Assembly: GCF_003334785.1 (NCBI RefSeq)
Contig: NZ_QOWV01000001.1
Strand: one strand, 5' to 3'
Length of the DNA: 64,000 nucleotides
Origin: Escherichia coli
Lineage (GTDB): Bacteria; Pseudomonadota; Gammaproteobacteria; Enterobacterales; Enterobacteriaceae
Shown: positions 2,884 to 9,241 of the stretch, one piece after another
Position numbering within the stretch: position 1 is the stretch's first letter
Layout of the letters: the number at the start of each line of letters is the position of its first letter
Translations under genes and position numbers: made by a program
Notes under the pieces: generated by a model
The model's database searches: none
Seen by the model: only the letters and a program-made list of their open reading frames with translations
Told to the model about the DNA's origin: nothing

Positions 2884-3531
<648 letters not shown>

Positions 3532-4573: not shown

Positions 4574-4925
4574 CCTTTCTCCCACAAATATCTAGACTTA
4601 AGTAAAGCGTGGAGTGTACTGGATATACCCAATGCTGGTTGAGCATTTGTTGAAAAAATTTTCCCCCGTTTTGACTAAAATGCGCCAGGATTGATGGAAT
4701 CATTAGTCTGGTGATTAGGAATAATCTGGATGAATGACAGGGAAAACATGCGTAATACTTACGCAGTTCTCTGAAAAAGTGATTTAAATTTAGATGGATA
4801 GCGGTGTATGGAAACGTTCTGTTACATGAAATGGCCCGTTAGACATCACAAATCGCGAAGAGTTTCCCATTAATTTTTGATATATTTAAAACTTAGGACT
4901 TATTTGAATCACATTTGAGGTGGTT

Positions 4926-5454: not shown

Positions 5455-5492
5455 ATAAAAAATCCGCCTCTCGGGGCGGATTTTTGTTTTTA
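5455..5492. terminator. Bidirectional rho-independent terminator between ompX and opgE
   Basis: Hairpin ATCCGCC-TCTCGG-GGCGGAT flanked by an A-run upstream and a T-run downstream. Confidence 0.7.
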
Positions 5493-7073
5493 AGGTTTCG
5501 GGTCGAAAATATCGGTTCCGAGATGGTTGTAATCCACCTTCTGTAACTGGAAGTTGGTGATGTATATCGGCCCGGCTTTCTTCTCAGATATAAACGGGTA
5601 TTTGATGTTAATTTCCTTCGCTTTAATCCCCGTCCACTGGGAGAAAAAGCCTAAGAAGTCATTGGCTGAGCGGCGGGCTTTAATCACACGATGCGCTTTA
5701 TCGTCGCTGGAAATGACCATAAAAGGCACCTGGAAATTTTGCTGATATTTATCATCATGGGCAAGGTATTGCACGTCTTTACCGCGCTCTTTAAAGGCCA
5801 GACCGTGGTCAGAAAAGTAAACCAGCGAGAAGCTGCTGCCGCTGTTGCGTAACTGATCGTACAGCTTGCGCAGTAAATCGTCCGTTTGCGTCATGGTATA
5901 GAGATAGCACGACGTTTCTTTCGATTGCACAAAGGTTTCGTATTTTCCTTGTGTCCTGTCGCAGGCCTGCGGATGTGAGCCCATCAGATGTAGAACAATC
6001 AGCTGCGGTTGCGAGTGCTCTTGCGCCAGCACTTGAGCGGTCATATCCAGTAACGCTTCGTCTTTGGTGTTTTTATCTGCTTCAAAATTACCTTCTTTCA
6101 GGAAGTACACTTCATCTGCTCGTTTGGCGATGCTGGCGATAGCGGTATCGTATTCGCCGATTTGACCCTGGTTGGAAAACCACCAGGTCTGGAAGCCCGC
6201 GCGATTTGCCAGGGTGACAAAGTTATCCTGAAACTGTGGTTTGCCATCGACAACGCGATTGAGCGTTAAGCCAAGCGATTTCTGCGTGGAGCCACTGGCG
6301 GCAATGTAGTCAGCAAATATCAAACCGTTAACGCTGCTGGCAAACGGGGTATTGTCCCAGTGACCGCCAAAGGCACCGAGGGCATCGCGACGCGCGCTTT
6401 CACCGATCACCACCACATAGGTCTGATACTTCGGCTTAACGGCAGTGACCGTCCAGGTATCTTTCATTCCGGAAAGTTTTGCCATCCGTTCTTGCTCTTC
6501 AATCACCTCGTTATTATTGACGATGACATCCTTAGCAAAACGAAATACCGGATAGCCAGTATCTTTCAGTTTAAATACGCCACCCCAGGCCAGGTTTTGC
6601 ACGGGAGCAACAAAAAATGTCGCCACACTGAATACCAGACACAGGCTGTCGAAGGTATTCCAGCGCGCTTTTTCATTCTCTTTTTTTCGCCTGATTGCTA
6701 TTACGCCGAGCGCAAAAATAAATAAGCCGACCAGGTAGCTGTACCACGGAAAAATCGTCAGGATTTCGGTCGACTCTTCCATATTGGTGGAGTGCAATGC
6801 CAGCAATGTATTGAAATTAGGCGCGCCGTAGGCCTGAGCAAAAGGGAAATAACAAGCCGCCACCAGCGAACTGACACCGACCAGAACTTTTTGTACGCGA
6901 GGCAATGTTCGCCATAGCAAAAGCAAAATAGCCGTAAACGCAGCGGTGTAGAGCAAACTGAAGGGGTAACCTAAGCCGAGGTTAATTAATAGCGACTGTA
7001 AAAAGTAGAACGCAGTCCACGGGCTAAATACCCGGCTACGGGTAACAAGCGATTCTTTGAGGGTTAAATTCAT
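5490..7073 (-). CDS. opgE: Phosphoethanolamine transferase for osmoregulated periplasmic glucans
   Basis: 527-aa ORF with N-terminal transmembrane segments and a C-terminal sulfatase-like domain; position matches ybiP/opgE. Confidence 0.88.
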   Translation of the reverse strand: MNLTLKESLVTRSRVFSPWTAFYFLQSLLINLGLGYPFSLLYTAAFTAILLLLWRTLPRVQKVLVGVSSLVAACYFPFAQAYGAPNFNTLLALHSTNMEESTEILTIFPWYSYLVGLFIFALGVIAIRRKKENEKARWNTFDSLCLVFSVATFFVAPVQNLAWGGVFKLKDTGYPVFRFAKDVIVNNNEVIEEQERMAKLSGMKDTWTVTAVKPKYQTYVVVIGESARRDALGAFGGHWDNTPFASSVNGLIFADYIAASGSTQKSLGLTLNRVVDGKPQFQDNFVTLANRAGFQTWWFSNQGQIGEYDTAIASIAKRADEVYFLKEGNFEADKNTKDEALLDMTAQVLAQEHSQPQLIVLHLMGSHPQACDRTQGKYETFVQSKETSCYLYTMTQTDDLLRKLYDQLRNSGSSFSLVYFSDHGLAFKERGKDVQYLAHDDKYQQNFQVPFMVISSDDKAHRVIKARRSANDFLGFFSQWTGIKAKEINIKYPFISEKKAGPIYITNFQLQKVDYNHLGTDIFDPKP

Positions 7074-7344
7074 ATGCCACTATCGTAACAAACGCCATGT
7101 GCTTACCCTGGCGTCAAGGGTCAATACCTGCAAGAGTGCGTGAAGAGTGGAAAGGGGTCCGCATCCGCGAGCCGCAATATACGCAGGGCTGCAAGAAGAT
7201 AGAGCGAGCCGCCGTTCAGGTCAACTACTGACGAACAAATCTTTTGCGAAGGGGATTGCAAATCCGACAAAAAGTGGGGTTTTTCAGACCAAAACGCGTT
7301 ATGCCTGCATGAAAGCAGGAGTGAAGCGGCGTACCGCGACGCCG

Positions 7345-7473
7345 CTATTTATCGGAAGGTTTATCTTGCTGCGGTTTGTTGTTGACCATATCGCACAACA
7401 TAGAGAGCAGCATTAACCGTACTTTAAAGGGAGAATGACTAAACACGCGCATACACCTCTTGAACTCATTCAT
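7345..7473 (-). CDS. mntS: Small manganese-responsive protein MntS (42 aa), within the rybA transcript region
   Basis: Minus strand translates to MNEFKRCMRVFSHSPFKVRLMLLSMLCDMVNNKPQQDKPSDK; below the ORF-track length cut-off. Confidence 0.7.
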   Translation of the reverse strand: MNEFKRCMRVFSHSPFKVRLMLLSMLCDMVNNKPQQDKPSDK

Positions 7474-7529
7474 AAGACCTCCTGACTTGCTAATCCCGTC
7501 GATCCTTGAGGGATGATTGCATTACATAC

Positions 7530-7565
7530 AGATATAGCACAGGCTATATTATATAGCTATTGCTA
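7530..7565. promoter_or_regulatory. Candidate MntR operator(s) in the mntS promoter region
   Basis: Inverted repeat ATAGCACAGGCTAT followed by ATATAGCTAT, about 60-90 bp upstream of the mntS start. Confidence 0.4.
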
Positions 7566-7658
7566 AAACGTTAATTTTTTGTACCTTCGCAACTCTGGTT
7601 TACAATGTGCGCACGAAATGAGAACGCTATGTATGCGTCACCATAATGAGGAAGCACA

Positions 7659-8126
7659 ATGAGTCGTCGCGCAGGTACGCCAACAGCAAAAAAAGTGACG
7701 CAGTTAGTGAACGTGGAAGAGCACGTTGAAGGGTTCCGCCAGGTCAGAGAGGCGCATCGGCGCGAGCTTATTGATGATTACGTTGAGCTGATTTCTGACT
7801 TGATCAGGGAAGTGGGGGAAGCTCGTCAGGTGGACATGGCTGCTCGTCTGGGAGTTTCGCAACCGACGGTGGCTAAAATGCTTAAGCGGCTGGCAACCAT
7901 GGGGCTGATTGAAATGATCCCCTGGCGTGGCGTGTTTTTAACGGCAGAAGGAGAGAAGCTGGCGCAGGAAAGCCGCGAGCGACATCAGATAGTCGAAAAT
8001 TTCTTGTTGGTGTTGGGCGTCAGTCCGGAAATCGCCCGTCGCGACGCGGAAGGCATGGAGCACCATGTTAGTGAAGAGACGCTCGACGCTTTTCGTTTGT
8101 TTACCCAGAAACACGGTGCCAAATGA
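7659..8126 (+). CDS. mntR: Mn(II)-responsive transcriptional regulator, DtxR family
   Basis: 155-aa ORF with N-terminal HTH and metal-binding/dimerisation region; stop overlaps ybiR start. Confidence 0.92.
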
Positions 8127-9241
8127 GCCTGCCTTTTTTACGCACGCTGCAAGGCGATCGTTTTTTTCAGTTATTAATTCTTGTTGGTATCGGATTAAGC
8201 TTTTTCGTGCCCTTTGCACCGAAATCCTGGCCTGCTGCTATCGACTGGCACACCATCATCACCTTAAGCGGCCTGATGCTGCTGACCAAAGGTGTGGAGT
8301 TAAGCGGTTATTTTGATGTGCTGGGGCGCAAAATGGTGCGCCGCTTTGCTACGGAGCGTCGGCTGGCGATGTTTATGGTGCTGGCGGCGGCGCTGCTTTC
8401 TACCTTTCTGACCAACGATGTCGCGCTGTTTATTGTTGTTCCGCTGACTATCACGCTAAAAAGACTGTGTGAGATCCCGGTTAATCGGCTGATTATTTTT
8501 GAGGCGCTGGCAGTCAACGCTGGTTCGCTACTGACGCCAATTGGCAACCCGCAAAATATTCTTATCTGGGGACGTTCTGGTCTTTCGTTTGCCGGATTTA
8601 TTGCCCAAATGGCACCGCTGGCTGGCGCAATGATGCTGACGCTCCTGCTCCTGTGCTGGTGTTGTTTCCCTGGAAAGGCGATGCAATACCATACGGGGGT
8701 GCAAACACCGGAGTGGAAACCGCGGCTGGTGTGGAGTTGTCTGGGGCTGTATATCGTCTTTCTGACGGCGCTGGAGTTCAAACAAGAGCTGTGGGGACTG
8801 GTGATTGTGGCGGCAGGCTTTGCGCTGCTGGCACGTCGCGTGGTGCTCAGTGTGGACTGGACGCTGCTGCTGGTGTTTATGGCGATGTTTATCGACGTCC
8901 ATTTACTGACCCAGCTTCCAGCGTTGCAAGGCGTGTTGGGTAACGTGAGTCATCTATCTGAACCCGGGTTATGGTTAACGGCAATCGGTTTATCGCAGGT
9001 GATCAGTAACGTGCCGAGTACCATATTGTTGCTGAACTATGTGCCGCCGTCTTTATTACTGGTATGGGCGGTAAACGTAGGTGGCTTTGGGTTATTACCC
9101 GGATCGCTGGCAAATTTGATTGCGCTACGTATGGCGAACGATCGCCGCATCTGGTGGCGTTTCCATCTCTATTCAATACCGATGCTGTTGTGGGCGGCGT
9201 TGGTGGGATATGTTTTGTTAGTTATACTCCCGGCCAACTAG
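8123..9241 (+). CDS. ybiR: Putative anion transporter, ArsB/NhaD permease superfamily
   Basis: 372-aa polytopic membrane ORF in an operon with mntR. Confidence 0.88.

Follow-up and report, generated by a model that had tools for sequence, protein, structure and literature searches.

The Escherichia coli small-protein gene mntS and its tandem MntR-type operators, divergent from mntR-ybiR

mntS is a small-protein gene of Escherichia coli that encodes the 42-residue protein MntS within the rybA transcript and is divergent from mntR and ybiR. The window, by which we mean the whole 64-kb stretch of E. coli DNA that was analyzed, carries mntS and rybA on its minus strand and mntR and ybiR on its plus strand. 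Between mntS and mntR lie two adjacent palindromes that are predicted MntR operators. The genes and features of the locus are the following, in window coordinates.

5490..7073, minus strand: opgE (ybiP), from the K-12 annotation
7147..7416, plus strand: 89-aa antisense ORF with a GTG start, from the ORF list
7201..7540, minus strand: rybA ncRNA (b4416; K-12 852725..853064), from the K-12 annotation by identical alignment, with its 5' end at 7540
7325..7346, minus strand: predicted GC-rich hairpin AGCGGCG / CGCCGCU, overlapping the mntS stop codon
7345..7473, minus strand: mntS (b4705; YP_009029995.1; K-12 852869..852997), from the K-12 annotation by identical alignment
7478..7483, minus strand: Shine-Dalgarno sequence AGGAGG, 4 nt before the mntS AUG, in columns that are about 90% or more conserved
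7532..7549, no strand: predicted MntR operator site 1, ATATAGC-ACAG-GCTATAT with perfect 7-bp arms; core ATAGCACAGGCTAT at 7534-7547
7548..7553, minus strand: candidate -10 hexamer TATAAT of mntS, read from the sequence; ends 7 nt upstream of the annotated 5' end at 7540
7551..7568, no strand: predicted MntR operator site 2, 19 bp from site 1; core ATAGCTATTGCTAA at 7553-7566 with one mismatch (GCTAA)
7579..7606, plus strand: candidate mntR promoter, TTGTAC at 7579-7584, a 16-nt spacer, and TACAAT at 7601-7606; conserved
7659..8126, plus strand: mntR (K-12 b0817), the gene for the manganese-sensing repressor MntR of the DtxR family, an ORF that matches the NCBIfam MntR equivalog model NF008273 at 269 bits (cut-off 153)
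8123..9241, plus strand: ybiR, from the K-12 annotation

The 42-aa ORF at 7345..7473 on the minus strand starts with ATG, stops with TAG, and is translated as MNEFKRCMRVFSHSPFKVRLMLLSMLCDMVNNKPQQDKPSDK in an ORF list with a minimum length of 20 aa. Positions 7150-7700 of the window are 100% identical to positions 852674-853224 of K-12 MG1655 (NC_000913.3), with zero differences over 551 bases, and window coordinates are converted to the K-12 record by adding 845524. The first-pass annotation had taken this ORF for MntS, encoded in the rybA transcript, and had proposed a comparison with the K-12 mntS annotation. That comparison confirmed the identification: the coding coordinates coincide, the protein is identical to b4705, and it lies inside b4416, at the same coordinates relative to rybA, mntR, and opgE as in K-12 and with no difference of any kind. 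The NCBIfam equivalog model NF033226 (small_MntS) matches residues 1-39 of the 42 at 96 bits (cut-off 36; E = 6e-28). A megablast search with positions 7000-7700 matched 5,422 of 5,426 complete E. coli genomes, with opgE, mntS, and mntR annotated beneath the match.

The feature is thus already known, as the well-characterized mntS gene of E. coli with its two MntR-type operators. The reading adopted here, with a probability of about 97%, is that the locus comprises mntS (42 aa, in the rybA transcript) and tandem MntR operators that control it, divergent from mntR-ybiR. MntS and MntR are an established node in manganese homeostasis, at which MntS blocks the MntP exporter when manganese is scarce, and the locus adds no new biology to that picture.

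mntS is a textbook case of the under-calling of small proteins. A functional gene of 42 codons was invisible to the length-filtered ORF track, which listed a longer, spurious antisense ORF in its place. The gene was missing because of the minimum-length threshold and reappears when the threshold is lowered to 20 aa. The first-pass annotation described mntS as missed by the ORF track, which holds for the length-filtered list only; the RefSeq annotation already carries mntS here. Another annotated gene of the window, yliM (21 aa, METFCYMKWPVRHHKSRRVSH; 4808-4873, plus strand), lies upstream of ompX and would likewise be invisible to a length-filtered track.

Conservation of the MntS frame was examined in the best 80 species-representative GTDB loci, all from Enterobacteriaceae, which were anchored on MntR and carry MntR proteins 86-99% identical. 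Because the loci were anchored on MntR instead of the ORF, the sample was not selected for the ORF. The genera sampled include Escherichia, Citrobacter, Salmonella, Enterobacter, Klebsiella, Raoultella, Kluyvera, Kosakonia, Leclercia, Lelliottia, and Franconibacter. Of the 80 loci, 77 encode an MntS-like peptide upstream of mntR and divergent from it; every one of these ORFs starts with ATG and has 41-44 codons, and together they specify 67 distinct proteins. GGAGG occurs within 16 nt of the mntS ATG in 76 of the 77, and the mntS-mntR spacer measures 162-191 bp in all except one locus, in which an insertion extends it to 432 bp.

Selection in these loci is specific to the MntS frame. In the first 36 codons of the 77 loci, codon positions 1, 2, and 3 have 19, 13, and 33 variable columns of 36, respectively. 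The pN/pS ratio, pooled over comparisons with E. coli, is 0.19 for the MntS frame, while the two other sense frames give 1.02 and 2.20 and the three antisense frames give 0.85, 0.37, and 2.24. Purifying selection acts in the MntS frame. In-frame conservation across the enterobacteria was the point on which the first-pass annotation had staked the small ORF, and the frame proved to be conserved. A smaller published conservation analysis of mntS agrees (PMC4361602); the figures given here, including the 77 species, the pN/pS of 0.19, and the fixed 19-bp spacing of the operators, extend the published argument quantitatively without changing it.

Sixteen MntS residues are invariant among the 67 distinct proteins: M1, N2, E3, R6, C7, V10, F11, H13, S14, P15, F16, V18, R19, L20, L22, and K33. 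C27 is kept in 65 of the 67 and D28 in 61. A PF motif and candidate metal ligands among E3, C7, H13, P15, F16, C27, and D28 are discussed in the literature (PMC4361602; bioRxiv 10.1101/2023.06.02.543501).

The three loci without mntS are of two kinds. Two of them (L042 and L074) have less than 160 bp of DNA upstream of mntR, and the third, from Citrobacter sp. R56 (L013), is a real loss and the sole mntS-less locus among the 78 with enough upstream DNA. mntS is therefore dispensable in at least one lineage. At positions 1808-2890 of the Citrobacter sp. R56 locus, AT-rich DNA containing a 265-aa ORF with a Cys/His-rich N-terminus replaces mntS and the left half of site 1. That locus still has operator site 2 and the promoter region of mntR.

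The 89-aa ORF on the plus strand at 7147-7416 is the longest ORF of the interval, and length is the one property that speaks for an assignment in which it is the real gene and the minus-strand ORF a chance antisense frame. Against it, it starts with GTG, has no match in an NCBIfam search, and is annotated neither in K-12 nor in RefSeq. When it was aligned to the 77 loci by tblastn, it ran at full length without a stop in only three (L001, L002, and L023), and the first two of these are E. coli loci whose sequence equals that of the query. Elsewhere, even in the E. coli genome that represents the species (L003), stop codons intervene or the alignment breaks off. Among species, the longest ORF that overlaps mntS on the plus strand can be as short as 22 aa or as long as 118 aa, and the frame of the antisense ORF itself accounts for the pN/pS of 0.85 over its overlap with mntS. 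The antisense ORF was rejected as a gene on the grounds that stops or frameshifts interrupt it in nearly every other species and that it matches no family. The first-pass annotation was right to call it probably spurious, and the assignment of the real gene to the plus strand has next to no credibility.

rybA is the transcript that contains mntS, and its annotation in K-12 as an ncRNA raises a second alternative, in which RybA works as a regulatory sRNA and is itself the functional product, the 42-codon ORF being incidental. RybA is reported, in a statement cited within PMC4361602, to be an Hfq-independent sRNA that lowers aroF and aroL under peroxide stress, and there is constraint outside the ORF, in a near-invariant block of the 5' UTR and in a conserved 3' hairpin. 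These observations have to be set against the selection in the MntS frame, with its low pN/pS and its variable third codon positions, and against the conservation of the ATG, the stop position, and the Shine-Dalgarno sequence. In published work, manganese sensitivity was attributed to the MntS protein by means of frameshift alleles at F11 and F16, and Hfq is not needed for it (PMC4361602). An Rfam scan of 6500-8500 at E <= 1 returned no match, and thus no match to a curated RybA family. The 340-nt rybA RNA has a minimum free energy of -89.2 kcal/mol, which equals the shuffle mean (z = 0.0), and the idea of a highly structured RNA was dropped for that reason. An exclusively non-coding role for the transcript is very improbable, and it is possible that the RNA has a dual function, with RybA sRNA activity beside the coding of MntS.

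The constraint outside the ORF falls at both ends of the transcript. At the 5' end, a 12-nt block at 7520-7531 (CATTACATACAG; transcript positions +10 to +21) is almost invariant across 74 distinct spacers and is as conserved as the operators, though neither palindrome includes it. The folding prediction pairs this block with the half of site 1 that is transcribed, in a hairpin at the 5' terminus of the RNA.

At the 3' end, the stem pairs of the GC-rich hairpin at 7325-7346 are kept in 71-76 of 76 distinct sequences. A stem this close to invariant leaves little room for covariation, and so there is no covariation evidence for the structure; RNAalifold on the 3' region of mntS recovered just this post-stop hairpin, with almost no covariation. 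The consensus of other genera has a U-tract after the hairpin; in E. coli this tract is degraded, which explains why a terminator scan called no mntS terminator. The hairpin is probably a terminator or a 3'-end stabilizer of the shortest transcript. Published rybA transcripts range from 205 to about 400 nt and have a common 5' end (PMC4361602), and the degraded U-tract of E. coli may explain the reported ladder of longer, read-through RybA species.

The two palindromes upstream of mntS are predicted MntR operators. The core of site 1 (ATAGCACAGGCTAT) is upstream of both genes, 61-74 nt from the mntS ATG and 112-125 nt from the mntR ATG (7659). Two exact copies of ATAGC-N4-GCTAT are present in the 64-kb window, where 0.07 would be expected by chance, and none of 100 shuffles reached two. 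Across species, all 77 loci have perfect half-sites at site 1, and 75 of the 77 have a site 2 with at most one mismatch, its offset from site 1 being constant at 19 bp. Site 2 is a perfect palindrome in several loci of Enterobacter, Kosakonia, Lelliottia, and Pseudescherichia. The exact palindrome is present in 90 copies in 14.4 kb of mntS-mntR spacers and in no copy in 470 kb of flanking DNA from the same loci.

The 74 distinct spacers were aligned with MAFFT, and conservation was expressed as the frequency of the commonest base, averaged over each segment. By this measure, conservation within the spacer is highest at the two operators, at 0.989 for site 1 and 0.887 for site 2 against flanks of about 0.77 (0.78 in the mntS leader and 0.76 in the stretch towards mntR). 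The first-pass annotation had noted a single inverted repeat just before mntR as a candidate MntR operator. The repeat itself, ATAGCACAGGCTAT at 7534-7547, holds up: its half-sites are invariant in all 77 loci, and the palindrome recurs at other MntR targets. There are two tandem copies, however, the second of which is imperfect and has its last base just beyond the end coordinate given there, 7565. The placement is only approximate, as site 1 does not abut mntR but overlaps the start of mntS transcription.

The other MntR targets provided an independent check, in which K-12 DNA around them was scanned for ATAGC-N4-GCTAT. mntH has a perfect copy (AACATAGCCTTTGCTATGTT) 17-30 bp upstream of its ATG. 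mntP has one perfect copy and one copy with a single mismatch, 40 bp apart and about 370-420 bp upstream of its ATG. dps, which lies within the window (2884..3387, minus strand), has a perfect copy (ATAGCACCGGCTAT) at 3437-3450, 50-63 bp upstream of its ATG; this is the only other perfect ATAGC-N4-GCTAT in the 64 kb and is very probably the known MntR site of dps. With the sites at mntS, the window would therefore hold two MntR-controlled promoters about 4 kb apart. The consensus from six sites is roughly A(C/T)ATAGC-N4-GCTAT(G/A)T. Together, these comparisons support the prediction, made from sequence, that the inverted repeats at mntS are MntR operators.

The sites at mntS share with the operators of mntH, mntP, and dps the ATAGC-N4-GCTAT core and its A/T-rich extensions, and differ from them in arrangement. 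mntS has two abutting sites 19 bp apart over its promoter core, whereas mntH and dps each have one perfect site in the stretches scanned (5 kb and 64 kb, respectively). The two sites of mntP are far upstream, and MntR is reported to up-regulate that gene and not to repress it (PMC4207228). Site 2 of mntS is imperfect in E. coli, in contrast to its perfect counterparts in several other genera.

The promoter of mntS is a candidate placed largely by its position. A consensus promoter scan called no minus-strand promoter for mntS, and no convincing -35 element was found; the promoter geometry therefore rests on the annotated 5' end of rybA in K-12. The putative -10 hexamer lies between and under the two sites, with site 2 covering its upstream half and the spacer beyond, and the least conserved base of the TATAAT block in the 74-spacer alignment is hexamer position 3. 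The promoter appears to be dominated by its -10 element. Site 1 covers -9 to +9 if transcription begins at the annotated 5' end (7540). The operator positions, with site 1 over the annotated 5' end and site 2 over the inferred TATAAT, are compatible with repression.

Regulation of mntS by MntR has been documented in the literature. MntR:Mn represses mntS (PMC4361602), a PmntS-eGFP reporter is repressed by manganese only when MntR is present (PMC9806134), and the RegulonDB curation paper lists MntR as a repressor of mntS and dps (PMC4207228). The arrangement of the sites suggests how this would occur. When Mn2+ is sufficient, manganese-loaded MntR dimers would occupy the two adjacent 18-bp palindromes (7532-7549 and 7551-7568), and we infer that both sites are filled. 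Together they would mask the mntS start site and its -10 element and exclude RNA polymerase, a presumed promoter occlusion. When Mn2+ is scarce, MntR would leave the DNA, a transcript of about 200-400 nt would be made, and its strong AGGAGG ribosome-binding site would direct translation of MntS. MntS has been reported to bind and inhibit MntP (bioRxiv 10.1101/2023.06.02.543501, later Mol Microbiol 2024), and its synthesis would in this way block manganese export and raise intracellular manganese.

MntS is reported to be homologous to the 40-45-residue signal peptides of an MntR-linked subclade of SitA, the periplasmic subunit of the SitABCD manganese importer (bioRxiv 10.1101/2023.06.02.543501). 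The homology was found by iterative profile searches, the PF motif is common to both, and signal peptides of the SitA subclade can substitute for MntS; an origin of MntS from the signal peptide of an MntR-linked SitA has been proposed (bioRxiv 10.1101/2023.06.02.543501). MntS differs from SitA in that it is a stand-alone ORF and has neither the mature SitA domain nor the AXA cleavage motif. MgtS (with PitA/MgtA), AcrZ (with AcrB), and SgrT (with PtsG) are likewise proteins of fewer than 50 aa that are induced by a specific stress and bind and modulate a larger membrane transporter. Their sequences are unrelated to MntS, and their partners and signals differ, so the likeness is an analogy of mechanism and not membership of one family.

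mntR lies on the other side of the shared spacer, which measures 185 bp in the window. Its promoter is tentatively assigned to 7579-7606 from the two hexamers and their conservation; a simple promoter scan called two other, weaker plus-strand candidates, at 7521-7550 and 7618-7647. Both operator sites lie within the spacer, and the candidate mntR promoter begins only about 11 bp beyond site 2, so that the palindromes might mainly serve mntR-ybiR through autoregulation of the repressor, or serve both directions, instead of acting on mntS. The retention of site 2 next to mntR in Citrobacter sp. R56, where mntS and half of site 1 are deleted, fits such a role. The sites nevertheless overlap the mntS start site and -10 element but sit upstream of the candidate mntR -35, a position from which repression of mntR by occlusion is not expected. 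In one Leclercia locus, an insertion of about 250 bp parts the operators from the mntR promoter, and the operators remain next to mntS. A literature search found no report of mntR autoregulation. A main or joint role of the palindromes at mntR is unlikely, and the operators are best read as controlling mntS.

A broader possibility is that the leader and operator block has further functions, with the hairpin formed by 7520-7531 adding RNA control, through mRNA stability or RybA sRNA activity, and the tandem operators tuning mntR-ybiR. This combination is speculative, and the odds are clearly against it. Extra RNA control or mntR autoregulation, if true, would be an added detail in a well-studied regulon and not a new type of system.

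The insert in the Leclercia locus (L038; L. adecarboxylata NCTC13032) occupies positions 2665-2910 of that locus, between site 2 and the mntR -35. It contains internal repeats, with TTGCGCTGGCC... present twice, and is possibly a REP/MITE-like element.

The mntR stop codon and the ybiR start codon overlap by 4 bp (ATGA) at 8123-8126, an arrangement that suggests translational coupling within an operon. YbiR has weak matches only, to anion and DASS-type transporter families. The mntR leader contains a direct repeat, AATGAGAACGC (7617-7627) and AATGAGGAAGC (7645-7655), whose copies are 28 bp apart. The second copy holds the mntR ribosome-binding site, and the repeat is probably a chance match.
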